From: Escherichia coli
GTDB lineage: Bacteria > Pseudomonadota > Gammaproteobacteria > Enterobacterales > Enterobacteriaceae
DNA length: 64,000 bases
Direction: 5' to 3' (one strand)
Assembly (NCBI RefSeq): GCF_044324875.1
Contig: NZ_CP172185.1
How positions within the stretch are numbered: the stretch's first letter is position 1; each line of letters begins with the position of its first letter. Below, one piece after another: positions 1,683 to 35,895 of this stretch. Position numbers and translations under genes: made by a program. The notes under the pieces are model-generated. The model saw only the letters and a program-made list of their open reading frames with translations. It was not told where the DNA came from and ran no database searches.

Positions 1683-1884
1683 TGCAAAATGGCATCTGAA
1701 TCGATCGCAGTTTGGCATTCGAATCGATCATGATTTGGCATCCATCTCCGATCACAGTTTGGCATCACAATCGATCACGATTTGGCATGCTTCCGATCAT
1801 TGATTGGCATCCTGCCAGTCACTCCGGGAATTAACTCTTTTCACCACAGTCTCCATTGCCGTGTTTAAACCAGTGGAGACGTCA

Positions 1885-3450
1885 ATGTCCAGAAAGAGAA
1901 AATCCAGGAGCACTATGGAAACCTGTTTTAAGATCCTTCAGCTCAAGTTCGACAAGAAGCTGACTAACCGTTGTATCGGACTGACGTTACACATCAGCGC
2001 CTCAACCGTTTTTGAGGTTCTTGCCCGCTTCAAAGCCTCTTCTCTGTCATGGCCATTACCTGCTGATATATCCCATGACACGCTGGAGAAACTCATTTTT
2101 CCGCCCAAAGACACCTTTGCATCAGAGCTTGTAATGCCTGACATGTTGTACTTCGATACGGAAATGAGAAAACCAGGTGTGACGCGGCAACTGTTGTGGA
2201 TGGAATACAAGGCACAGGCGGGTAACAAAGCGATGGGATACTCGCACTTCTGCCGTTGCTACCGGGAGTGGAAAAAAACGCGACGTCTCTCCATGCGCCA
2301 GGAGCATCGTGCCGGCGAAAAGCTTTTTATCGACTTCTGTGGTCCTACGGTTCCTGTTATTAATCCGGACACCGGTGAGATACGCCGCGTGGCAATCTTC
2401 GTGGCCGTAATGGGGGCGTCCAACTATACCTACGTTGAAGCGTGCGAAGGTCAGGACATGATGTCATGGTTAAATGCCCACAGCCGTTGCCTGACCTTCC
2501 TGGGCGGCGTACCGAAGCTGCTCATCCCCGATAACCTCAGAAGCGCAGTGAAAAAGGCCGATCGATATGAGCCTGTCATCAACGACAGTTATCAGGCACT
2601 GGCTGAGCACTATGGCACGGTTATCATCCCGGCCCGACCACGCAAACCTAAAGATAAACCAAAAGCAGAAAACGGCGTCCTCATCGTTGAACGATGGCTT
2701 CTTGCCCGCATCCGTAATGAAACCTTCCACACGCTCAGGGCGCTGAATGCGCGCCTTAGGGAGTTACTGACAGACATGAATAACCGGCCAATGAAGGGGT
2801 ACGGCAATCAAACCCGTGCAGAACGCTTCCGCATACTGGATGCGCCAGCACTCTCTCCGCTGCCTCTGGCACCTTATGAATACACGGAATACAAAGCTGT
2901 GAAGGTTGGCCCTGACTACCACGTTGAATATGCCCGTCACTGGTACTCCGTTCCACACGAACTGGTCGGTCAGCGTCTGTCACTGAAGGCGGGGCAGTCG
3001 GTGGTACAGCTCTGGCACAAGGGGCAGTGTGTGGCGCAACATCCGCGCAGCACACATGAATATAAACACACAACCAATCCGCTTCACATGCCAGAGCGCC
3101 ACCGGCAGCACGGGACATGGACACCGGAACGCCTGATCGAGCAGGGAAAACGTACGGGCCCGTCCACAGGCCGGGTGGTTGAATCCATGCTGAAGGCAAA
3201 ACCCCATCCGGAACTGGCTTATCGTGCAGTTCTGGGGCTGCTGGCACTTCAGAAAAAATACGGCCCGGAACGGCTGGAAAAGGCCTGTTACGTTGCCCTG
3301 CACTATAACGCCCCTGACAGACGCTTTATCGACAATCTGCTGCGTCACCATCGGGAGAACCTGGAGCTTCCATTATCCCGCCAGGGCGAACAACATCCGG
3401 CATATGCTTCAGAGCATGAAAACCTGCGTGGTCCGGGCTACTACCACTGA
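1885..3450 (+). CDS. istA: IS21-family transposase IstA
   Basis: ORF track 1804..3450; N-terminal HTH-like region then integrase-fold region; start at ATG 1885 or 1915 is uncertain. Confidence 0.8.
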   Translation: MSRKRKSRSTMETCFKILQLKFDKKLTNRCIGLTLHISASTVFEVLARFKASSLSWPLPADISHDTLEKLIFPPKDTFASELVMPDMLYFDTEMRKPGVTRQLLWMEYKAQAGNKAMGYSHFCRCYREWKKTRRLSMRQEHRAGEKLFIDFCGPTVPVINPDTGEIRRVAIFVAVMGASNYTYVEACEGQDMMSWLNAHSRCLTFLGGVPKLLIPDNLRSAVKKADRYEPVINDSYQALAEHYGTVIIPARPRKPKDKPKAENGVLIVERWLLARIRNETFHTLRALNARLRELLTDMNNRPMKGYGNQTRAERFRILDAPALSPLPLAPYEYTEYKAVKVGPDYHVEYARHWYSVPHELVGQRLSLKAGQSVVQLWHKGQCVAQHPRSTHEYKHTTNPLHMPERHRQHGTWTPERLIEQGKRTGPSTGRVVESMLKAKPHPELAYRAVLGLLALQKKYGPERLEKACYVALHYNAPDRRFIDNLLRHHRENLELPLSRQGEQHPAYASEHENLRGPGYYH

Positions 3451-3466
3451 CAGAAGGAACAACAGT

Positions 3467-4222
3467 ATGAGTGATAACCTGTTAAACAAACTGACCCAAC
3501 TGAAACTCCCGGCGATGGCCGGGAGCCTGATACGGCAGCGGGAAACGCCTCAGACCTACGACGAACTGTCGTTCGAGGAAAGGCTGACGCTGCTGGTTGA
3601 TGACGAGCTTCTGAGCAGGGAAAACAGCCGTGTGGCACGGTTGAGAAAAAATGCCGGCCTGAAATACCAGGCAACACCGGAAGGGCTGCGCTATCCGGCC
3701 TCAAGAGGTCTGCGGGCTGAACAGATGAGAGAACTGCTGAACGGCCACTACATAACCCACAGGAAAAACCTGCTGATAACCGGTCCGACAGGATGTGGCA
3801 AGAGCTGGATAGCCAATGCGCTGGGCGAACAGGCATGTCGACAGAAACACAGCGTCCGGTACTGTAGAACCGGGCGATTACTGGAACAACTGGCTCAGGG
3901 ACGTGTTGATGGCAGCTGGCTGAAATATCTGAAACAGTTGCAAAAAATACAGGTTCTAATCCTGGACGATCTGGGGCTGGAACAGTTAAGTAACGCCCAG
4001 TGTAATGACCTTCTGGAGCTCATAGAGGATCGTTACGGACAAAGCAGCACGATAGTGGTAAGCCAGTTCCCGGTAGATAAATGGCATGGTCTGATGGAGA
4101 ACCCAACAACAGCAGATGCCATCCTGGACAGACTGGTACATAACTCACACCGAGTGGTCCTTCAGGGAGAGTCACTGAGGAAAAATCCCCCGGTAGTGGA
4201 AAGCAGCGAAAAAACGCGTTAA
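3467..4222 (+). CDS. istB: IS21-family helper ATPase IstB
   Basis: Walker A GPTGCGKS and Walker B LILDD motifs; ATG 3467 lies 17 nt after the istA stop; ORF track 3224..4222 is an N-terminally over-extended version. Confidence 0.85.
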   Translation: MSDNLLNKLTQLKLPAMAGSLIRQRETPQTYDELSFEERLTLLVDDELLSRENSRVARLRKNAGLKYQATPEGLRYPASRGLRAEQMRELLNGHYITHRKNLLITGPTGCGKSWIANALGEQACRQKHSVRYCRTGRLLEQLAQGRVDGSWLKYLKQLQKIQVLILDDLGLEQLSNAQCNDLLELIEDRYGQSSTIVVSQFPVDKWHGLMENPTTADAILDRLVHNSHRVVLQGESLRKNPPVVESSEKTR

Positions 4223-4300
4223 AAAGCGGTAGAAAAAGTTAAGTTCCCGGTTGATCGAATGGATGCGAATCGCTGATCGGACTTCGATGCCAATCCGTGA

Positions 4301-4627
4301 TCGAATAGAGCGGAATACGCAGCTTCAGAATATGGTTTCAACTGGGCTTATGTTGAAGGTTATCGTCTTGCCCGTGAAGAAGGCTGTGAAGATGCATGGT
4401 ATGCATGGGTTTCTAATACCGGTGATACCTGTTTCGAACAGTTCAGGGAGGCGTGGCTTGGTGGTCCTTATGACAGTGAACTCGAGTTCGCCGCGCAGTA
4501 CGTGGATGAATGCGGTTTTCTGTCAGAGGTACCTGATACTGTTGCACGCTATTTTGATTATGAGGCTTTTGCGCGCGATTTGTTCATGGAACTGGATTTT
4601 GTCGACGGACACGTTTTCCATCGGTAA
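4301..4627 (+). pseudogene. ardA: ArdA C-terminal fragment (no start codon)
   Basis: Frame without ATG translates ...EYGFNWAYVEGYRLAREEGCEDAWYAWVSNTGD...VARYFDYEAFARDLFMELDFVDGHVFHR*, matching the ArdA C-terminal region as I remember it; joins the 1472..1682 fragment across the IS. Confidence 0.55.
4322..4328. repeat. candidate target-site duplication GCTTCAG (right copy)
   Basis: Same 7-mer as 1676..1682. Confidence 0.45.
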
Positions 4628-5664: not shown

Positions 5665-6102
5665 ATGATGAACGTTAAGTCTGTGACTGAGGTTGACGAC
5701 GCTGTGGTTGCCCGTGTCAGTGAAGTTCTGGAATTCGCATTTCCGGGGCAGAAATTTGAAGTGCTGAAGGTATGCGATTCCGGCGTTTACAACATGATTA
5801 ATGTGTACTGGCTGGACGGCCCGACACAGGCTGAAGTGCGGTTTATCACCCGTGCGTTTGAAGGCAAAAACGGGCTGAGGTTTGTGCACGAATCCCGCGA
5901 ATTCAGTAATGAATTTGTGCAGGAGTGCATTGACCGGCTTCGCCAGAAGTACGGGCATCGCAACGTTCCGCCAGAGGTGACCGTGGAGCGTTACTGGAAA
6001 AACGATCTGTGGAAGATTAAAACAGATCGTTTCCCGGGCACTATTGAGGTTGCCATCAACGAAATGGGGATGGAAACCAGTAAATACCGGAAGGTTGTAT
6101 AA
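5665..6102 (+). CDS. hypothetical protein (145 aa)
   Basis: ORF track; GAGGAG RBS upstream. Confidence 0.4.
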   Translation: MMNVKSVTEVDDAVVARVSEVLEFAFPGQKFEVLKVCDSGVYNMINVYWLDGPTQAEVRFITRAFEGKNGLRFVHESREFSNEFVQECIDRLRQKYGHRNVPPEVTVERYWKNDLWKIKTDRFPGTIEVAINEMGMETSKYRKVV

Positions 6103-6123
6103 CCGGCTGGACTTTTGACGATG

Positions 6124-6147
6124 GCGGAATGTGACAATTCCGCTTTT
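6124..6147 (+). terminator. candidate intrinsic terminator (GCGGAAT-N6-ATTCCGC + TTTTCC)
   Basis: Stem-loop followed by T-run 20 nt after the stop of the 5665..6102 ORF. Confidence 0.4.
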
Positions 6148-6182
6148 CCCGTGAGGGCATTGTTCCTCACGGGACAATGCCC
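6148..6182 (+). other. two overlapping alternative palindromes (CCCGTGAGG/CCTCACGGG and GGGCATTGT/ACAATGCCC)
   Basis: Read from sequence; the two stems are partly mutually exclusive; sits just upstream of the RBS of the 6210 ORF. Confidence 0.45.
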
Positions 6183-6209
6183 TCTTCATTTACCAGAGGA
6201 GCATTGATT

Positions 6210-7187
6210 ATGGCTGAATGGTGCAGAAATCGTTTTGAAATCACCGGTAAGTCAGTCTGTCTTGACGTACTGATTCAGTGGATTGAAGGGAATGATGCCC
6301 CCCGGTACCGTCATGCGATCCAGCAGAGCATACTGCTGTTTCTTGCAGGCTGTGCGGGGATACTGAAACCGGTAAGAACGGTGTCATATCCGCCTTATCC
6401 CGGGCTGGTCAGTCACGGTGCCGGCTCAACAACTGTAGCCAGTCAGGCGTTTGAACAATGGCTGGGATTACTGACCAGGGATGCCTTCCTTGATCACGAG
6501 ACGGTGAAGACAATAGATCGTCTTTATCATCAGACAGGGACAGGCGCTATCCGGTGGAGTAATCTGCCTGATACGGCGAAGGAGATAATCGGTGGTGTGC
6601 TTGCACAACAATATGCTGACTGGTTTGGCGTGGCGGATGTGTATGAACGCCCTGATAACGCCTTTCTCTGGGAGTCGTTGTTAACATTTGCGGAGTATTC
6701 GCAACCCTGTGATATGCTGCAGGTGATGCCAACACGACTGGCCACGGAGCTGAACGGAAGTGGTGGTTTGCTGAAAGGCACCGGAACGACCCGCAGTTTT
6801 TACTGCCGCCAGTTTGGTATGGAGTACCCACTGGGGCAGAATGTCCGGTGGAAACGAACCGGGCTGAGTACGTTGATACTGGAGTTTGATACCATCTGGT
6901 GTCCGCCTTCAGGTGTACTGGTGGGGGAGATTTCGGCAGTGTTTGACTGTGAGGTCCGTCACTGGTACAGCGAGCCGAAGAACGGAATCAGAGGCTATGA
7001 CTGTTATGATGGTGGTGAACATACGGACAGCAATATGGAAGCCGAATGGCCACACTCTGACGATGAGGGGGAGGTCGCGGAGCATGAGCAGCCACAACTC
7101 TGTCTGATCAGGGACACGCAGCCAGGTGAACGCGTCATGGCATTAGCATCAGTCGAGTCCCCGGGGCCAGTAGTAAAAATAGTGTAA
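6210..7187 (+). CDS. hypothetical protein (~325 aa)
   Basis: ORF track 6177..7187; ATG 6210 (MAEWCRNRF...) preceded by GAGGAG; acidic C-terminal tail. Confidence 0.45.
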   Translation: MAEWCRNRFEITGKSVCLDVLIQWIEGNDAPRYRHAIQQSILLFLAGCAGILKPVRTVSYPPYPGLVSHGAGSTTVASQAFEQWLGLLTRDAFLDHETVKTIDRLYHQTGTGAIRWSNLPDTAKEIIGGVLAQQYADWFGVADVYERPDNAFLWESLLTFAEYSQPCDMLQVMPTRLATELNGSGGLLKGTGTTRSFYCRQFGMEYPLGQNVRWKRTGLSTLILEFDTIWCPPSGVLVGEISAVFDCEVRHWYSEPKNGIRGYDCYDGGEHTDSNMEAEWPHSDDEGEVAEHEQPQLCLIRDTQPGERVMALASVESPGPVVKIV

Positions 7188-7196
7188 TGAAACAAT

Positions 7197-7221
7197 GCGC
7201 CACATTTTGTGGCGCTTTTTT
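7197..7221 (+). terminator. intrinsic terminator (GCGCCAC-TTTT-GTGGCGC + TTTTTT)
   Basis: Perfect 7-bp stem followed by T6, 10 nt after the stop of the 6210..7187 ORF. Confidence 0.6.
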
Positions 7222-7268
7222 AATAAATCAGTGATGGCAGAGTTGTTATTGTAAATAACTCTCCGTGT

Positions 7269-10184
7269 TTACTGAGTCAGTTTTTTTATCAGGTCGTGAA
7301 TTTTATCACCTGAAAACTGGGTCATGAAAGTTATCTTTATGGATTTACTGATTTGTTCGAAGAGTTTCTGTGCATGTTTTATTTTATCGCGTTCTTCATG
7401 TCTGAGTTCACGTTTGCCATCAACATTTTTGGTTTCAATAATAAGGTTCAGATAATCACCCTTTGACGTGTTTACAACATAAGCGAAGTCAGGGGAGTAA
7501 GTGTATCCTCCCGCTACAGGAATTTTTATTGAATTTTTGGGGATCTTTGTGAAGACAATGACTGACCTGACCTCACCCTCTGTCATATTGAGTTTTTCAA
7601 GTTCTGAATCATAAAATACTTCTTCAAAAAGATAAGAGTCCAGTGGAGGGCTTGTATTATCCTGTAAAACGCCAAGATCACTTGACAATACATCAGCAAG
7701 ATAACCGCCGTCTGCATTGGTGAATTTCGTGGGATGGACAGTTCCTGATATTACATTATACCCAAGGCTGAATTTACTGAACGAGTTATTAAGCAAATAC
7801 TTGCTGAAACCAGATTTAATTTTTCTGATTGTCTGAATGTTAAGGTATTCAGTTATATTTATGATGTCTTTTATATCACAAAAAACCTTATGCATGGTGT
7901 CATGTTTGACAAAAATAGTCTGTGATAATTTATCAAGGAATTCACGATAGCTCATTGTGTTTATTTTGTGAAAATTATCCTCATCAACACTGAGAATGCT
8001 TTTCGACATTGCCGTATCATTATGGATATAAATTCTTTCAATACGAGTATGAGCACCGGATTTGGTAAATCTGTCTGCTTCTTCCAGCATAAACGCTCTG
8101 AAAAGGGATAAAAACTCACGTTCACTTTTTATTTTATACTCAATCACGACCTTTTGATTGATCAAGTCCCATAGTTCTTTCAGCTCACTGAACTTACCAA
8201 CACGCATTTTAGTGCGTCTTTTTCCATCAGAGGCTTTTTTTATTTTGCCTGGTTTCACTCCTGCAGGAAATGCTGCCGGATATCTGGCTTTTAAGCGGCT
8301 ATAGGCATCTGAATCTTTGAAGTTATCATTATCATCAATGATCTCATCATCAAAAATTTCATTCAAGAGTGTTCTGGAGGAAAGCTCCGGATATTGAGAC
8401 AGGATTTTATCCTTAAGTTCCTGAGTAAACTTACCTGGAACAGTCTCTTTGAAAGAACTATCGTTGATCTCTTTGACAAGAGAATCGACAAAATCTTTTT
8501 CTGTAAAATCAACATAATAGTTGAGGGTAAAATTGCGGTCTTTCACACGACACATGTATTCATTCACCGGAAGACGTAAACCACGCCCTACTTCCTGAAG
8601 TTTAGATGTGGTGCTACCGCTCGAACGGAGCTTACAAATCTGAAAGACATTTGGGTTATCCCATCCCTCACGCAACGTCCATTTAGAGAAAATGAAACGG
8701 CGAGGATTTTCTAAAGACAATAGAAGCTCTTTATCATGAAGGATTTCGTTGATTTCCTGCTCAATTTTATCATCTTTATCACTATTATCTTTTGAAAAAT
8801 AACCACCATGAACAGAAGATATATCCTTAACAGTTTTTTCAAGGTAGTTTCTGTAAAACTCATCTTTTTCTGTTTTTAACAGTTCATTTGCTTCTGCCAA
8901 AACGTATTCTTCGAACTTAGTTTTCAGGCTTCCTGCAATATCATTACCATCACGATAGCCTTCAATGTCATCAATGAAGAAAAGAGTAAGAGGTTTTATG
9001 CGTGGCCTTTGTGTCAGATACTCTTTTTCTAACTTAAAGTGTTCTTTGACAGCTTTACGTATCATGTTATCAGCAAGTGTCTGATCGTAAGAATAGGGGT
9101 TTATCGAACTACCAATTTTTAGCTCAATACCATTACTCAACACTGCTGTATTCTTATTTAAAGCATCAAGAGTTAAATCATGGATCGCACTATGCGTCTT
9201 AGATAGTGATTCACCTTTGGCTAACTTAAAAATTTTTTTATTATTATTTTCGTTCAGTTCAAATGTAGCTTCTTTTCCGTCAGATTTGACCAACTTGAGG
9301 TTGGCATTACCATCACCAACTATATCCTCAATGTATGCATCAATACCTTTAACAAGATCTTCATTGAAGGCATCTACGGCTGTAAGACGATAAACTAAGT
9401 TCTTATATCCTTCACTAAAGGTTGCACCATAGCGGATGATATATTGGGCATTAAATTTTTGAATATGTTCCCATGTCTTTTTACCAGTAGGAAATTTATG
9501 AGGCTCATCAATGATAATGAATGGTTTTATCGCACTAAGTGCAGAAAATGGGGTATCAAACTGATTATTAAGCAAGCCAACATCATAAGTGTCAGTTAAA
9601 GACTTAGAGTTAATCATCCCTGAATTGATCACAAGAATGTGTATATATTTCTTATTGAAATTACTTGCTTCAACAAAATCATGGATAGCTTGAGGCATAT
9701 ACGATTTTGTATTTTTACCCGAACGTTTCTGACTTTCAACAACGTAAGTCTTTAGTTCACGCTCGTAATCATCTCGAAAGTGTTCTTTTATAGCATCGCT
9801 TTTTAAAAAGTTAACGGTTCCGGCTTTGATCGATAGGGTAGGAACAATGATGATAAACTTGTTAATACCAAATGATTTGTTCAGGTCAAAAATTGTTTTG
9901 GTGTAAGTATAAGTTTTACCTGTACCTGTCTCCATAGAAACATCAATTACGTTGCTTTTAGCATCGTAATTATCTTTTGAGTGCTCAATACCATTGAACT
10001 CCTGAACATTTTTTATGTTGTTGTAGTATTGTTGTTCAGATAGATTCAGTTCTGGATTAGCTAACAGGCGAATTGCAACATGATCCGTCTGATGAGGTAT
10101 GGCGGATACAAAGACATTCATTACCGAATCAACGCCAGCCTTTTGATGAGGTAAATTTTTTTCGAATGTGAACCCTTTAGACAT
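7269..10184 (-). CDS. res: Type III restriction endonuclease Res subunit (helicase-nuclease)
   Basis: 971 aa; Walker A METGTGKTYT, DExH-like IIIDEPHKF, C-terminal PD-(x)n-ExK-like SPDFAYVV...IIETK; directly downstream of mod with a 2-nt gap; AT-rich. Confidence 0.85.
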   Translation of the reverse strand: MSKGFTFEKNLPHQKAGVDSVMNVFVSAIPHQTDHVAIRLLANPELNLSEQQYYNNIKNVQEFNGIEHSKDNYDAKSNVIDVSMETGTGKTYTYTKTIFDLNKSFGINKFIIIVPTLSIKAGTVNFLKSDAIKEHFRDDYERELKTYVVESQKRSGKNTKSYMPQAIHDFVEASNFNKKYIHILVINSGMINSKSLTDTYDVGLLNNQFDTPFSALSAIKPFIIIDEPHKFPTGKKTWEHIQKFNAQYIIRYGATFSEGYKNLVYRLTAVDAFNEDLVKGIDAYIEDIVGDGNANLKLVKSDGKEATFELNENNNKKIFKLAKGESLSKTHSAIHDLTLDALNKNTAVLSNGIELKIGSSINPYSYDQTLADNMIRKAVKEHFKLEKEYLTQRPRIKPLTLFFIDDIEGYRDGNDIAGSLKTKFEEYVLAEANELLKTEKDEFYRNYLEKTVKDISSVHGGYFSKDNSDKDDKIEQEINEILHDKELLLSLENPRRFIFSKWTLREGWDNPNVFQICKLRSSGSTTSKLQEVGRGLRLPVNEYMCRVKDRNFTLNYYVDFTEKDFVDSLVKEINDSSFKETVPGKFTQELKDKILSQYPELSSRTLLNEIFDDEIIDDNDNFKDSDAYSRLKARYPAAFPAGVKPGKIKKASDGKRRTKMRVGKFSELKELWDLINQKVVIEYKIKSEREFLSLFRAFMLEEADRFTKSGAHTRIERIYIHNDTAMSKSILSVDEDNFHKINTMSYREFLDKLSQTIFVKHDTMHKVFCDIKDIINITEYLNIQTIRKIKSGFSKYLLNNSFSKFSLGYNVISGTVHPTKFTNADGGYLADVLSSDLGVLQDNTSPPLDSYLFEEVFYDSELEKLNMTEGEVRSVIVFTKIPKNSIKIPVAGGYTYSPDFAYVVNTSKGDYLNLIIETKNVDGKRELRHEERDKIKHAQKLFEQISKSIKITFMTQFSGDKIHDLIKKLTQ

Positions 10185-10186
10185 GA

Positions 10187-12223
10187 TTAGTTTCTTACCA
10201 CCAAATCTAAATCAATAGATTTTTTATTAGCATAACTTTTTAGTGCTTCATTGAGTTCCATCTGTTTCGCACTTTCGAAGTTGCTGCCATAAAATACAAC
10301 TTTGTTAGGGGCAAAGTCTTTGTCTGCATCCAGCTTTTGAAGTAAAGCTTTCAAAGCCTCACTTGTGAAATTAGGCGCAATTAGATATAGCCGACCATCG
10401 CACAAGTGTGCTTTGTAGCCATTAAGGTCAATATCTTCAATTGGTGTTGTTAGCAAGCTGCCATCATACACGCACCATGTCGTCAATAGAGTGTCATACT
10501 GCTCTGGTGTCAATACAGCATCGTCAAAGAAACTAAGATTAGAAAGCGTAAGTTCAGACTCATCTTTCACTCGAAAATTATGAACTGTTTCAAATATTTT
10601 AAATCCCAAATCTCCATTATAATTAGGATTATCTTTTTTCAGCTTTTTTCCTGCCTTAATAATTCTGTCTTTTGTTATATTGAAGATGGATTTATACCCT
10701 TCTTTATAGGCTTGTTTCTTTTTATCTGTTTCTTCATCTAATTGAACACAGATGAAGTTTCTTTTCCTGCCGTCTTCAATATTTAACTCCAGAATACCAT
10801 GAGCTGTAGTTCCAGAGCCAGCAAAAAAGTCAAGATAAATGTCTTTATCTTCGGTTTTTACTGAACCAAATAGTGTTTTTATTAAACTTGTTGGCTTCGG
10901 GTAGGAGAAATATCCTTTCCCACCAAAAAGATTTTCAACCTCAACACCACCATCACTTTTAGTTGAAATAATTGATCTTAGTAAAAACTCTTCAACTTCA
11001 TCTAAAAATTTAACCGAACTGGGTTGGGTGTTTTCTGTACTGGCAAACCAAATTCCACCACAAATAACGCTACCATCATGTAGTTTTTTGATATCTGCAT
11101 ACTTTCCATCTATTCTTTTTGCAATATGATTAAAAGTGCCTTCTTTCCAACGCCAGCCTCTGTCTGGGATTTTGACAGGGTTATTAGTCAAAGGGTGCAA
11201 TACTTCATACGTGGGTCCAAATGAATCTGCATTAGGCCAGCTCATATTAATTTTACCCCATGGCCTATAATCTTCGTTCAAACAGTTGTAAAGAGTAATT
11301 CCACGATCATATCCGTTGGAGCTGTAGAATTTTTTGAGTTGCTGCTCTGCTTTATCTAATGGCACCTTCTCCTTTTTTAACTTTTCAATAAACTGATATA
11401 CATCATCAATACCATCTTTCCGCATTAAAAATTCTTTACTTATTTCGTTATTCTTCGCATAAGCAAGGATGTACTCATGGATATTACCAATACCCTTATC
11501 ATTTTTAGGGATACGTTTATTCCATACAATATTTTCTATGAAATTTGCTTCGCCAAAAATTTCATCACAAATAGTTTTAAGTTGATTTAATTCATTTTCG
11601 TCAATCGAAATAAATATCACACCATCTTCACGTAGAAGCTCACGAGCAATATATAAACGAGGATAAATGAACGTTAACCATGCGCTATGGCTGCTTGAAC
11701 CATTCGTGGTAAATTCAAGTATACGTTTAGCCTCATCAAGATCGATACCTGCCAGATCAGAAAGCTGTTCAGGTGTAAACTTGCGATCATCGTTATAGGC
11801 GAATCCATCCTTACCTGTATTGTATGGTGGATCAATGTAAATCATCTTCACCTTTTCAGAGTAAGCATTAACCATATGCTTCAATACTTCGAGGTTATCC
11901 CCTTTGATTAACAGATTCTGACTGTTTTTGTTCTCTTCACGTTGGTTATGGTCTTTATCTTCGGAGAGTAATGTCTTCGGCGGCAAGTTAGCTAACAGAC
12001 GGGCATAGGATTTACCAAGCCAGTTCAGGCTGTATGATTCTTTGGAGAGTTCAACATCCGATGATTTGACGATTTCAAGCAATTTTTCCTGAATGAACGC
12101 TCCATTTTTATCAAAACACTGTGGAAAGTTAGCCTTTAAAATCGCAAGCTGTTTACTGTTTGTGGTTTCAGTTTCAGAGAAAAGAGTTTCTTTTTTCAGT
12201 TGAAATTGGGGTTGTGTATTCAT
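10187..12223 (-). CDS. mod: Type III DNA methyltransferase Mod (N6-adenine)
   Basis: 678 aa; motif IV IYIDPPYNTG before motif I LDFFAGSGTT (beta-class order typical of Type III Mod); strong GGAGG RBS; ATG 12223 overlaps the stop of the upstream leader ORF. Confidence 0.9.
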   Translation of the reverse strand: MNTQPQFQLKKETLFSETETTNSKQLAILKANFPQCFDKNGAFIQEKLLEIVKSSDVELSKESYSLNWLGKSYARLLANLPPKTLLSEDKDHNQREENKNSQNLLIKGDNLEVLKHMVNAYSEKVKMIYIDPPYNTGKDGFAYNDDRKFTPEQLSDLAGIDLDEAKRILEFTTNGSSSHSAWLTFIYPRLYIARELLREDGVIFISIDENELNQLKTICDEIFGEANFIENIVWNKRIPKNDKGIGNIHEYILAYAKNNEISKEFLMRKDGIDDVYQFIEKLKKEKVPLDKAEQQLKKFYSSNGYDRGITLYNCLNEDYRPWGKINMSWPNADSFGPTYEVLHPLTNNPVKIPDRGWRWKEGTFNHIAKRIDGKYADIKKLHDGSVICGGIWFASTENTQPSSVKFLDEVEEFLLRSIISTKSDGGVEVENLFGGKGYFSYPKPTSLIKTLFGSVKTEDKDIYLDFFAGSGTTAHGILELNIEDGRKRNFICVQLDEETDKKKQAYKEGYKSIFNITKDRIIKAGKKLKKDNPNYNGDLGFKIFETVHNFRVKDESELTLSNLSFFDDAVLTPEQYDTLLTTWCVYDGSLLTTPIEDIDLNGYKAHLCDGRLYLIAPNFTSEALKALLQKLDADKDFAPNKVVFYGSNFESAKQMELNEALKSYANKKSIDLDLVVRN

Positions 12224-12432
12224 AACGCACCTCCAGAATGCACGGAGGTACTTGACGCGGAATTTTTATACAGGCATATTGTTGCGTTGCGTTGCGTTGC
12301 GTTGCGTTGCGTTGCGTTGCGTTTCGTTGCGTTGCGTTGCGTTGCGTTGCGTTGCGTTGCGTTGCGTTGCGTTGCGTTGCGTTGCGTTGCGTTGCGTTGC
12401 GTTGCGTTGCGTTGCGTTGCGTTGCGTTTCAT
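12220..12432 (-). CDS. repeat-containing leader ORF, 70 codons, MK(RNATQ)n..., translationally coupled to mod
   Basis: ATG at 12432 with GAGG 7 nt upstream; the whole pentanucleotide tract is inside the ORF; TGA stop overlaps mod ATG (ATGA). Confidence 0.4.
   Translation of the reverse strand: MKRNATQRNATQRNATQRNATQRNATQRNATQRNATKRNATQRNATQRNATICLYKNSASSTSVHSGGAL
12281..12430. repeat. pentanucleotide tandem repeat (GTTGC)n, 30 units, 28 perfect
   Basis: Read directly: 8 perfect units, GTTTC variant at 12321..12325, 20 perfect units 12326..12425, GTTTC variant 12426..12430. Confidence 0.95.
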
Positions 12433-12465
12433 TAAATAGCCTCGAGTTTCGTTTTACAGGTTTTT

Positions 12466-12494
12466 ATTCTAACCTGAATTGTTGATTTTCTGAA
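12466..12494 (-). promoter_or_regulatory. candidate sigma70 promoter for the leader-mod-res transcript (-35 TTCAGA, 17-nt spacer, -10 TAGAAT)
   Basis: Hexamers read on the minus strand upstream of the leader RBS; no experimental support. Confidence 0.25.
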
Positions 12495-12505
12495 TAAGTC
12501 TGACG

Positions 12506-12680
12506 TCAGTTGTTACGGGAAGGTATCAGAGTGGCTAGATGCACTGTGGCACGTCTCATGGCGGTTATGGGGCTTGCCGGCGTTCTCCGGGGGGTAAAGC
12601 TCCGTGCTACTGTCACCTGGAACGCCGTTGCCGCAGGCGACCGCGTAAACCGTCTGTACCGCCCGGGCCCAATATTAAGA
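12506..12680 (+). pseudogene. IS3-family transposase (OrfB-like) internal fragment, degenerate
   Basis: Translation LLREGIRVARCTVARLMAVMGLAGVLRG...AVAAGDRVNR resembles the middle of IS3-family OrfB; no start; homology ends abruptly. Confidence 0.5.
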
Positions 12681-12709
12681 ACTAACGTCATACCAGGGAC
12701 GTTGTCTGA

Positions 12710-13723
12710 ATGGATGAGAAGCTAAAACATGCGGATTTATCGTCTTTGCCAGAGCAGGTGAGGGTTGCCGCTAGGGAGCTTGTTGACCTGAAGTTTCGTA
12801 TCGATATGGCAGCAAGAGGCGGTACGTCAGGGATACCACTTGACCTGCATGGGAGGATGACAGGAGGAGAATGGGGGCCGCATTGCGGGCTGGAATTTTT
12901 CTGCAGCATCATTCCTTTTTTCCCGCGAGATTTTGAAACCTGTTCAGTAACTGAAATGTTGGTTCCTACCTTACATACCTTCGGCTGCAACTGGCGTTGG
13001 TGGCCCGATCGTTATTGTAGCGACAAAGATGAACACTATATACGGCGTCACATTTTTTCTGATTACGGGCTGAAAAGTACGAGCTATACCTTCATTCCTC
13101 AGTTGGGATTGTTCTGCCCGAGTGAAGGTAAAAATCGTGTTAACTTCTGCCGCCATCACGGTATCGAATATATCCCCGCACAGGTTTATTCCCATGATTA
13201 CCCAGAAGCAAATCGAATCTCTGTGTACGTTCAGGATACTGCCGGAGGGCTGGATGTGTGGGCCGTTCTTGATAATCGCTATGTTCAGAAGGTTACTCAC
13301 TATGCCTTTGCGCTCCCACTTTTGTGCGCTTATGGGGTAGAGTTCCCAGGTAAGTGGCCAGCAGGATGGCCATCGATATCGGACCTCCTGGCTAATCAAC
13401 TGTGTTGCACTGATGACACAACCTTTCATAAACCCGTGATCGATATGCAAGCTGTCAGGGATACGCTGGATCGTGATGAGAACAGCAGAGAGGATGGGGA
13501 GATGTATGTCAAAACCAATGTGGTTGAGCTGCCGCTGGCCGGGCTGGTTCGCTTCATTCTGATCGCAATGTTACTGAGTTTAGGTGCGTTGTTCATCCAC
13601 GAGGTACTGGATGAGGGAAGCCTGTCCAGGATTGCACTGGGAATAAGCACTTTCACGGCTGGCGTGGTTGCTTCGTTTTTTATCCCAGCGTTCCGTATCA
13701 AGAAAAAATATCTTCGCAAATAG
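12710..13723 (+). CDS. hypothetical protein with two C-terminal transmembrane helices (337 aa)
   Basis: ORF track; Cys/Trp-rich soluble part, then hydrophobic helices and a KKK tail; no recognised domain. Confidence 0.35.
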   Translation: MDEKLKHADLSSLPEQVRVAARELVDLKFRIDMAARGGTSGIPLDLHGRMTGGEWGPHCGLEFFCSIIPFFPRDFETCSVTEMLVPTLHTFGCNWRWWPDRYCSDKDEHYIRRHIFSDYGLKSTSYTFIPQLGLFCPSEGKNRVNFCRHHGIEYIPAQVYSHDYPEANRISVYVQDTAGGLDVWAVLDNRYVQKVTHYAFALPLLCAYGVEFPGKWPAGWPSISDLLANQLCCTDDTTFHKPVIDMQAVRDTLDRDENSREDGEMYVKTNVVELPLAGLVRFILIAMLLSLGALFIHEVLDEGSLSRIALGISTFTAGVVASFFIPAFRIKKKYLRK

Positions 13724-14001: not shown

Positions 14002-14746
14002 TGAACCGCCCCGGGAATCCTGGAGACTAAACTCCCTGATAAAGAGGTAAACAGAATGACTAAAAATACTCGTTTTTCCCCCGAAGTCCGTCAGAGGGCG
14101 ATTCGTATGGTTCTGGAAAGTCAGGGCGAATATGACTCACAGTGGGCGGCAATTTGTTCCATTGCCCCAAAGATTGGCTGTACACCGGAGACTCTGCGTG
14201 TCTGGGTACGCCAGCATGAGCGGGATACCGGAGGCGGTGATGGCGGGCTCACCACCGCTGAACGTCAGCGTCTGAAAGAGCTGGAACGTGAAAATCGTGA
14301 ACTGCGCCGCATCGTCTATGGAAACGACATTCGTGCTGGATGCTCTGGAGCAGGCGTTATGGGCCCGTCGACCGTCCGGCACAGTCCATCACAGTGATAA
14401 AGGTTCTCAGTATGTATCGCTGGCCTACACACAGCGGCTTAAGGAAGCCGGATTACTGGCATCAACAGGAAGTACTGGTGACTCGTATGACAACGCGATG
14501 GCGGAGAGCATCAATGGCCTTTACAAAGCGGAGGTAATACACCGTAAGAGCTGGAAAAACCGGACAGAAGTGGAGCTGGCCACACTCACGTGGGTGGACT
14601 GGTATAACAATCGACGATTGCTGGAAAGGCTGGGCCATATCCCACCGGCAGAAGCAGAAAAAGCTTATTATGCTTCCATCGGAAACGATGATCTGGCAGC
14701 CTGAGTTCACAGATAAAACACTCTCCAGGAAACCCGGGGCGGTTCA
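14002..14746 (+). mobile_element. IS629-like (IS3 family) element with ~565-bp internal deletion
   Basis: Terminal inverted repeats TGAACCGCCCCGGG(A/T)TTCCTGGAGA at both ends; OrfA N-terminus [15 protein letters not shown]...RENRELRR is fused directly to OrfB C-terminal part ...[11 protein letters not shown]...DDLAA; 745 bp against ~1.3 kb expected (from memory). Confidence 0.7.
14056..14704 (+). pseudogene. truncated and fused IS3-family orfA/orfB
   Basis: ORF track 14056..14397 (OrfA 1-87 plus out-of-frame tail) and 14288..14704 (OrfB C-terminal ~130 aa). Confidence 0.6.
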
Positions 14747-35714: not shown

Positions 35715-35790
35715 TGGTGCCCGGAGGCGGAATCGAACCACCGACACGGGGATTTTCAATCCCCTGCTCTACCGACTGAGCTATCCGGGC
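35715..35790 (-). tRNA. pheV: tRNA-Phe (GAA), pheV-type, with variant T-stem
   Basis: 76-nt cloverleaf GCCCGGATAGCTCAGTCGGTAGAGCAGGGGATTGAAAATCCCCGTGTCGGTGGTTCGATTCCGCCTCCGGGCACCA; anticodon GAA; located beside yqgA. Confidence 0.9.
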
Positions 35791-35895
35791 AACGGGGCGC
35801 ATTAAACCTGATTCGCCTCGTCTCGTCAATCAAATTTCTTCAATTTACTGCAGACTGCACAATCTATCATCACTTTGCCGCTAATGCACGCATTG

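Follow-up and report, generated by a model that had tools for sequence, protein, structure and literature searches.

A pentanucleotide-repeat leader ahead of an EcoP1I/EcoP15I-family Type III restriction-modification cassette on an Escherichia coli island: a candidate switch module

A Type III restriction-modification cassette, consisting of a methyltransferase gene (mod) and a restriction gene (res), lies on the minus strand at positions 7269-12223 of a 64,000-nucleotide stretch of Escherichia coli DNA (RefSeq assembly GCF_044324875.1, contig NZ_CP172185.1; hereafter the window). The best explanation of the locus overall, to which a probability of about 0.6 is given, is that the cassette is intact island cargo of the EcoP1I/EcoP15I family fitted with a leader switch module. 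The module would comprise a promoter, a short leader open reading frame (ORF) with its own Shine-Dalgarno (SD) sequence and ATG that extends across a (GCAAC)n tract prone to slippage, and a hairpin masking the ribosome-binding site (RBS) of mod. The parts of this reading differ in strength. The tract is very probably hypermutable and likely controls mod, and the odds that it does so specifically through translation of the leader are put slightly below even. Judged by analogy, the switch is of a little-studied kind, the repeat upstream of mod, that is exemplified by modO of Moraxella catarrhalis.

The mod-res gene pair

The mod gene (10187..12223, 678 amino acids (aa), N6-adenine methyltransferase) lies directly upstream of res (7269..10184, restriction subunit, 971 aa) on one strand, which is the EcoP1-type order, and both were found intact in the ORF list and profile searches. 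The junction reads TAA-tc-ATG (10182..10189), with the same letters as in phage P1, so that the 2-nucleotide (nt) gap and the tight linkage described in an earlier note, made from the sequence alone, were confirmed. A 2-bp gap between mod and res has been reported for EcoP1 as a family trait (PMC3874151). The Res protein scored 1073.8 bits against NCBIfam NF012027, for which the cut-off for Type III endonucleases is 564, and 1600 bits against PADLOC REase_III, and it aligned end to end with EcoP15I Res (PDB 4ZCF, chain 4ZCF_C) at 1907 bits in phmmer and ~90% identity. Mod matched PADLOC MTase_III with E = 2.9e-232 and EcoP15I Mod (4ZCF_A) with E = 9.5e-242. Motif checks located the superfamily 2 (SF2) helicase motifs GTGKT (aa 87, 9912-9926) and DEPH (aa 226, 9498-9509) in Res, together with a C-terminal PD-(D/E)xK nuclease motif in the form PD-x17-ETK (aa 898-919, 7428-7493). 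In Mod, motif IV (DPPY, aa 131, 11822-11833) comes ahead of motif I (FAGSG, aa 467, 10811-10825) with the target-recognition domain (TRD) between them, which is the beta-class order. The motif sets listed in the earlier note are complete, no catalytic motif being absent, and family profiles and the comparison with the EcoP15I structure agree on a Type III mod-res identity; the best matches were to Type III restriction-modification families.

Type III Mod proteins methylate one strand of a short asymmetric site, which leaves the DNA hemimethylated. The Res subunit is active only as part of a complex with Mod. Its substrate is unmethylated DNA with sites in inverse orientation, which it cuts in an ATP-dependent reaction 25-27 bp from such sites. 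For EcoP1 and EcoP15, a dependence of Res on Mod for both stability and activity has been described by Redaschi and Bickle, as related in PMC3874151.

On its alignments, Mod is the known EcoP1/EcoP15 mosaic, in which conserved arms flank a variable TRD. Three blocks were recognized against EcoP1I, with 80% identity in the N-terminal, 21% in the central and 70% in the C-terminal block. Against EcoP15I the match was near-perfect over the first ~250 and the last ~210 residues and poor in the centre. The TRD (~aa 256-455, 10859..11458) is the variable block that determines specificity; it is 99.5% identical to that of the E. coli LF82 allele and 21-23% identical to those of two other E. coli alleles with the same repeat leader. 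Because the central TRD is unlike those of EcoP1I and EcoP15I, the recognition site of Mod is presumably neither AGACC nor CAGCAG. The profile comparison proposed in the earlier note hence named the nearest characterized relatives, EcoP15I and EcoP1I, and stopped short of a recognition sequence. No methylome report for LF82 was found in the literature searched.

The system shares with EcoP15I (plasmid p15B) and EcoP1I (phage P1) the order mod then res and the letters of the junction, all of the catalytic motifs and an AT-rich composition. Res is ~90% identical to that of EcoP15I over the full length, and the Mod arms are conserved more highly against EcoP15I than against EcoP1I. The system differs from both in the unrelated central TRD, in eight additional N-terminal residues of the window Mod, in the exchange of the P1/LF82-type 5' end (…ggtttaaaATGGATATG…) for the repeat-leader module, and in being chromosomal, on an island, whereas theirs are phage- or plasmid-borne. 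As far as the sequence goes, the cassette itself is an ordinary, intact member of the EcoP1/EcoP15 family, and RefSeq already annotates it automatically as Type III.

The repeat leader and its relatives

Read along the mod strand, the leader region consists of TTCAGA-17-TAGAAT, GAGG-7 nt-ATG AAAC, (GCAAC)n, AATATGCCTGTATAAAAATTCCGCGTCAA, the hairpin and GTT ATG A. The repeat leader named in the earlier note is real: Tandem Repeats Finder reported 29.6 GCAAC copies at 12281-12428 with a 98% match. Counted by unit, the tract (12281..12430, minus strand, as are the leader features below) has 30 units, including a first GAAAC that overlaps the leader ATG, and one interrupted unit (GAAAC) stands between perfect runs of 20 and 8. 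The end of the tract is 57 nt from the mod ATG, which places the repeat upstream of the start codon in the position known from modO. The leader ORF (12220..12432) has 70 codons and encodes MK(RNATQ)n...GGAL. An SD-like GAGG (12440..12443) lies 7 nt before its ATG (12432-12430). A sigma-70-like promoter, TTCAGA-17-TAGAAT (12466..12494), matches the consensus at 9/12 positions; promoter-like matches in the region were not more numerous than in shuffled sequence, and this promoter is to be read as a pattern match.

The mod SD, GGAGG (12230-12234), lies inside the 3' arm of a hairpin, GTACCTCC-GTGCATTCT-GGAGGTGC (12227..12251, with the anti-SD arm at 12244-12251), which dominates both the minimum free energy (MFE) and the centroid folds and has an energy of -13.9 kcal/mol when folded alone. 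The stem is followed by GUUAUGAAU, with no T-run, and a terminator scan made no call, so the structure is not an intrinsic terminator. Counted from the first base of the mod ATG, the leader has three possible stops, which end at -42, +4 and +50. The first, a TAA in the mod frame (12266..12268), comes into use at a repeat number mod 3 of 2 and ends the leader 42 nt before the mod ATG, ahead of the hairpin. The second (12220-12222) comes just after the hairpin and is the one used in the window, where the leader TGA overlaps the mod start codon as ATGA (12223-12220). The third lies 50 nt into mod. Since each of the three frames is closed by a stop between the tract and the body of Mod, no repeat number fuses the leader to Mod. 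The suggestion in the earlier note of a repeat leader acting as a switch was sound as to the tract, and the arrangement is not the classical in-gene one, the repeat never being in frame with Mod, a point that the earlier note passed over.

Searches beyond the locus gave little. No RNA family was matched by Rfam within 7000-12800, a protein search with the leader peptide gave two matches, both in E. coli, and a scan of metagenomes with the hairpin sequence gave a single, uninformative contig in which the tract had collapsed to 4 units. A separate observation concerns the opposite strand, on which a promoter-like TTGACG-17-CATATT (12252-12280, plus strand) is directed into the repeats. The -35 box of this site corresponds, in reverse, to a GTCAAG motif that is conserved ahead of the masked SD in the E. 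coli, Spirabiliibacterium, Gallibacterium, Avibacterium and Necropsobacter modules and that is not explained by the hairpin.

Among 5426 complete E. coli genomes surveyed, 12 carry the leader. Their tracts hold 48, 31, 14, 34, 26, 26, 20, 8, 35, 38, 38 and 21 units, a range of 8-48 against 30 in the window, and the flanks across loci are 96-99.9% identical. All three frame states are seen among the sequenced isolates, the window having a repeat number mod 3 of 0, and because the frame state differs, the Prokaryotic Genome Annotation Pipeline (PGAP) gives the leader different 'hypothetical protein' annotations from one genome to another. The 12 genomes are those of E19035, GF43, Br_112_kylling, CM2, ECCNB12-2, TUM1886, 2015C-3121, 2013C-3033, SCU-171, FDAARGOS_1300, strain 48 and STEC2018-553. 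All E. coli alleles like that of the window, 11/11, have the TAA in the mod frame. Strain 48 has an allele with only ~84% identity in the leader region, yet GAGG and ATG are kept, with GAGG 5 nt upstream; its leader stops lie at -48 (a TGA ending 48 nt before the ATG), +4 and +50, and the predicted hairpin masking the SD has an energy of -12.7 kcal/mol. In sequence, the start signal of GAGG and ATG and a frame open through the tract are therefore kept in both E. coli alleles. At least two unrelated TRDs (21-23% identity) occur among the E. coli alleles with the leader, a situation also known from classical phase-variable mod genes. In the P1 and LF82 alleles the 5' end is another one, which lacks repeat and hairpin, and homology with them begins 25 nt inside mod; the leader is therefore a module that took the place of the ancestral 5' end.

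Two further observations were made on the E. coli tracts. In strain STEC2018-553 (locus L009, ~5700-6560) an IS1 element with a CCCAATTCC target duplication sits nine codons into mod and separates it from the leader; the tract there is the shortest, with 8 units. With strain 48 left out, the window and 11 genomes give 12 tracts of one type, and the unit number is even in 10 of them. An explanation by helical phase was considered for these even counts and dropped: the lengths span all phases at 10.5 bp per turn, several of the genomes are related, and the excess is probably due to chance.

Related arrangements exist in other bacteria. A scan for (GCAAC)5, with one genome per species, returned at least 120 loci, and a Type III mod gene stood beside the tract in 3 loci among the matches listed. 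The mod gene of Acinetobacter calcoaceticus carries (GCAAC)18 in frame, which is the classical arrangement. The leader arrangement precedes mod in Bibersteinia trehalosi and Rodentibacter caecimuris, and a Type II-like methyltransferase gene (PADLOC E = 8e-85) in Spirabiliibacterium falconis. In Gallibacterium anatis and Avibacterium gallinarum it precedes the gene of a 760-aa protein with NPPY and xAGTGN motifs, which had no Pfam or PADLOC match and is methyltransferase-like from its motifs alone; in both species (L098/L099 and L121/L122) the assembly breaks within the repeat tract. The loci with the leader arrangement share a layout that cannot yield a fusion, namely SD-ATG, 1-3 codons, (GCAAC)n, 40-70 nt and again SD-ATG. 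Two of the frames in the leader loci outside E. coli close 21-63 nt ahead of the downstream ATG, and the remaining one closes at -1 to +13. A hairpin masking the SD is predicted in Spirabiliibacterium (-17.4 kcal/mol) and Gallibacterium (-8.6 kcal/mol), and none is predicted in the Avibacterium module. Two further relatives from the Pasteurellaceae, in Avibacterium paragallinarum and Gallibacterium anatis, were examined and no repeat leader was present in either. Another locus, in Clostridia bacterium PG1894_132 (L079), has ATG-GAC-AAC-(GCAAC)14, a hairpin with a T-run, AAGGAGG and a gene for a 964-aa secreted protein; from its sequence it looks like a leader-peptide attenuator in the style of pil1 (described below) that uses GCAAC.

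Predicted control of mod and its alternatives

Published systems offer two precedents for such a leader and one comparison from within the species. In Moraxella catarrhalis, the Type III mod gene modO (McaC031IP), which is the closest precedent and has been shown by experiment to be phase-variable, has 5'-(CAACG)n-3' upstream of its ORF (PMC6241649, PMC7302503). Six TRD alleles and 12-33 repeats across strains have been reported (PMC6241649), and the relative mRNA at 9, 10 and 11 repeats was 1.00, 20.66 and 1.75, mRNA and not protein having been measured (PMC7302503). The authors suggest transcriptional control, and the mechanism is not established (PMC6241649, PMC7302503). The gene resembles the E. 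coli leader system as follows: CAACG is GCAAC read from the next base, in a tract that stands upstream of the ORF and not within it; the copy number varies between strains (12-33 in modO, 8-48 in the E. coli leader); and several TRD alleles stand behind one conserved 5' region. The systems differ in host family and in the position of the E. coli locus on an island, and modO was compared through its published description. The modO forward primer, TGGCTTGACATCCAAATTTAAGG, has a TTGACA...AAGG signature like that of the Pasteurellaceae modules, a signature that the E. coli leader lacks. The modO primers matched none of the compared loci, and no Moraxella entry was present among the best 120 relatives of the Bibersteinia Mod.

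The second precedent, whose mechanism has been worked out and is of the proposed sort, is the pil1 locus of Streptococcus gallolyticus, in which GCAGA repeats lie in a leader peptide and the position of the stop relative to a hairpin sets expression; a stop 39 bp upstream of the hairpin gives low, and a stop within or beyond it high, expression (PMC3894217). As in pil1, a pentanucleotide repeat lies in a short leader ORF (here predicted from SD and ATG), one frame stops before the hairpin (39 bp in pil1, 14 nt from the stem here), and the remaining frames stop within or beyond it, so that a ribosome can melt it. The pil1 hairpin differs in being an intrinsic terminator before a pilus operon. 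The E. coli hairpin lacks a T-run and sequesters a methyltransferase gene's SD, and the stop of one frame overlaps the mod start as ATGA; it is for these reasons that translational coupling, and not attenuation, is the predicted form of control. Within E. coli, M.Eco131I of DG131/3, a strain of E. coli that makes Shiga toxin (STEC), has a CAGCGAC repeat inside the ORF and was reported as the first phase-variable methyltransferase in the species (PMC5909438). It resembles the leader-bearing mod in being of Type III and in having at its 5' end a long simple repeat that varies between strains, and it differs in that the repeat is a heptanucleotide within the annotated ORF and in belonging to another mod lineage. 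The 2018 survey in that paper screened repeats within annotated mod ORFs (PMC5909438), so a tract of the leader type would escape it.

The proposed mechanism can be stated for each frame. Gain or loss of one repeat would shift the frame of the leader. At a repeat number mod 3 of 2, the leader ribosome would halt 42 nt before the mod ATG and 14 nt from the stem, the SD would stay paired and the mod RBS masked, and Mod would be OFF or low. At mod 3 of 0, the state of the window, the ribosome would melt the stem and terminate at ATGA, which would favour re-initiation, and mod is predicted to be ON. At mod 3 of 1 the ribosome would pass the mod start and stop 50 nt inside mod, with an uncertain effect. 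An untranslated mod message would be prone to polarity, giving an effect on mRNA that resembles modO, and the one-in-three mRNA pattern of modO is what a frame-dependent leader predicts. As Res needs Mod, Mod OFF should mean restriction OFF, and the switch should therefore be safe for the cell. The phrase 'probably switchable' in the earlier note is borne out in part: tract length differs in nearly every strain and modO provides a precedent, while switching at this locus is read from sequence only.

Several observations weigh against control by leader translation. By energy the hairpin does not stand out: the fold of the whole region has a z-score of only -1.2 to -1.4, and 21-28 of 200 shuffles equalled it. 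With its own strong GGAGG, mod might also be translated without the leader should the hairpin breathe. Of the 12 genomes, which are not independent of one another, 8 have a repeat number mod 3 of 2, and the distribution of states is uninformative. In the loci outside E. coli, ordinary ORF starts in the same sequences had a frame ending in the window around the start codon in 41-48% of cases; given this null of 0.41-0.48, the finding that one frame stops on the start codon was not used as support. Relatives of the pair carry frameshifts, in res in TUM1886 and in mod in FDAARGOS_1300, as opposed to the intact res of 971 aa in the window. Lastly, the Pasteurellaceae modules have a strong TTGACA-16/18-NANAAT match with the -10 box ending on the leader ATG, a geometry that is absent from the E. 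coli leader and from which, judging by sequence, transcription could start inside the tract and omit the leader start codon.

These promoters bear on the alternative that the tract switches mod at the level of transcription or mRNA and not through leader translation, which is considered unlikely, at roughly one chance in a handful. The length of the tract in the 5' untranslated region (UTR) might influence initiation, elongation or stability, or an antisense promoter at the 3' tract edge might interfere. The modO authors hypothesize transcriptional control and their data concern mRNA, not protein (PMC6241649, PMC7302503), and five Pasteurellaceae modules have a promoter-like site matching at 10/12 positions with the -10 box on the leader ATG. 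The antisense TTGACG-17-CATATT is conserved in strain 48, and Avibacterium and Gallibacterium have a counterpart in TTGACG/TTGATA-16-TAGACT; such a promoter would account for the GTCAAG motif. Yet in 9/9 modules an ATG is kept 4-9 nt ahead of the tract and is itself preceded, at 5-9 nt, by AGGA or GAGG, and a pure UTR model has no need of a conserved leader ATG and SD. The sole good E. coli promoter match lies upstream of the leader ATG. The modO values of 1 : 20 : 1.75 fit a period of three, which neither a monotonic effect of length nor one of helical phase predicts, and a difference in mRNA is also expected from leader-dependent translation by way of polarity.

It is more doubtful still that the tract is a neutral or vestigial microsatellite, with constitutive expression of mod from the gene's own GGAGG and ATG and no phenotype attached to tract length. 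The canonical SD and start of mod would suffice for such expression, Mod can be aligned with EcoP15I and EcoP1I from its annotated start onward, its N-terminus lacking nothing, and both the occurrence of all three frame states among isolates and the 8 units still present in the allele separated by IS1 would be compatible with a tract of no consequence. Against this, each intact allele keeps 14-48 near-perfect units and the IS1-disrupted allele is the shortest, and leader start, stops and hairpin are conserved between alleles that are ~84% identical in the region. Moreover, the module recurs before unrelated methyltransferase genes in other bacterial families, and in modO, where the repeat and its position are the same, a 20-fold effect has been measured (PMC7302503). 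A classical phasevarion, in which the mod coding sequence contains the repeat and an in-frame leader-Mod fusion is the ON state, as the in-frame (GCAAC)18 of the Acinetobacter calcoaceticus mod might suggest, is next to impossible here, the fusion being ruled out by the stop in the mod frame at -42 in 11/11 alleles and at -48 in strain 48 and by the stops of the other two frames at +4 and +50.

The switch by leader translation can be extended to the other species. The leader may tentatively be regarded as a portable, so far unrecognized switch cassette, built of SD-ATG, a few codons, (GCAAC)n, a spacer whose stops depend on the frame, and a masked SD with its ATG. It would work by leader translation, with termination-reinitiation and unmasking of the RBS in place of a frameshift in the regulated protein, and would have come to stand before methyltransferase genes of several unrelated families in Pasteurellaceae, probably in Moraxella (modO), and on the E. 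coli island; this broader proposal is held with somewhat less confidence than the action through leader translation in E. coli.

Island context and significance

The cassette stands out by composition. Its G+C content is 0.358 (35.8%), with 0.31-0.32 at third codon positions (GC3), against 0.515 (51.5%) in the remainder of the window. It is the lowest-G+C stretch of 4955 bp in the 64 kb, the next lowest non-overlapping one being at 0.444. The AT-richness asserted in the earlier note was thus borne out; the pil genes, which it took as the immediate flank, start ~8 kb to the right. The left neighbour is a DUF1281 gene (6177-7187), convergent with res, and between the two lies a GC-rich hairpin (GCGCCACAAAATGTGGCGC, 7197..7215) with a T-run on the plus strand that is likely a terminator. 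On the right, the AT-rich insert ends at a remnant of an IS3-family transposase (12510..12725, plus strand) that adjoins the leader promoter; it is annotated as a partial IS3 transposase in all matching genomes, and G+C is back to ~0.53 there. The segments at 12510-12725 and 14056-14710, to the right of the cassette, form a decayed part of the island, with IS3 remnants and, judged against the island of strain E19035 (below), degraded relE/parE and higA genes.

The island is bounded by a tRNA-Phe gene (35715-35790) and carries an integrase, TraI, a UvrD-like helicase, a type IVb pilus operon with a PilV shufflon, TraF and ardA. Past the tRNA gene (35715-35838 and beyond) lie yqgA-speC-nupG, which identifies the pheV site. 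The avian-pathogenic E. coli (APEC) strain E19035 has a 99.9% identical island at pheU, adjoining dsbD and dicD, and the element has thus used either tRNA-Phe gene as an attachment site, by independent integration. A 93.5% identical pair of mod and res that lacks the leader occurs in a small tRNA-Leu islet of LF82, NRG857c and others, and further relatives are found on P1/P7-type phages and ~110 plasmids, every one of them without the leader. Composition, position in a tRNA-Phe island and the occurrence of the same system at other loci and on phages and plasmids all agree with the 'foreign cargo' of the earlier note. On sequence grounds it is well supported that the pair is horizontally acquired cargo of an integrative, conjugative-type island at tRNA-Phe.

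The comparison with the E19035 island also brought out two rearrangements in the window. An IS21-family element is inserted at 1683-4321 (IstA 1804-3450, IstB 3224-4222), with 23/47-bp terminal repeats at 1690-1811, and it splits the antirestriction gene ardA, the C-terminal part of which resumes at ~4322-4627. A segment of 749 bp beside pilV (19700-20448), with a gene for a site-specific integrase near it, is inverted at 99.9% identity, which is consistent with an active shufflon.

Taken alone, the cassette is one more defence system of the EcoP1/P15 type on a mobile island. The layout of the leader suggests an easily tested mechanism for repeats that lie upstream of methyltransferase genes, a group in which modO is the one characterized case. 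If the leader is indeed a portable cassette, it would explain the unexplained 1 : 20 : 1.75 expression of modO, and surveys limited to repeats within ORFs would undercount phase-variable methyltransferases. Long simple-repeat switches are rare in E. coli, and the literature searched held a single phase-variable methyltransferase, of another design. A second such switch on a conjugative island, if true, would mean that avian-pathogenic and Shiga-toxin lineages can randomly toggle a restriction barrier together with genome-wide methylation.

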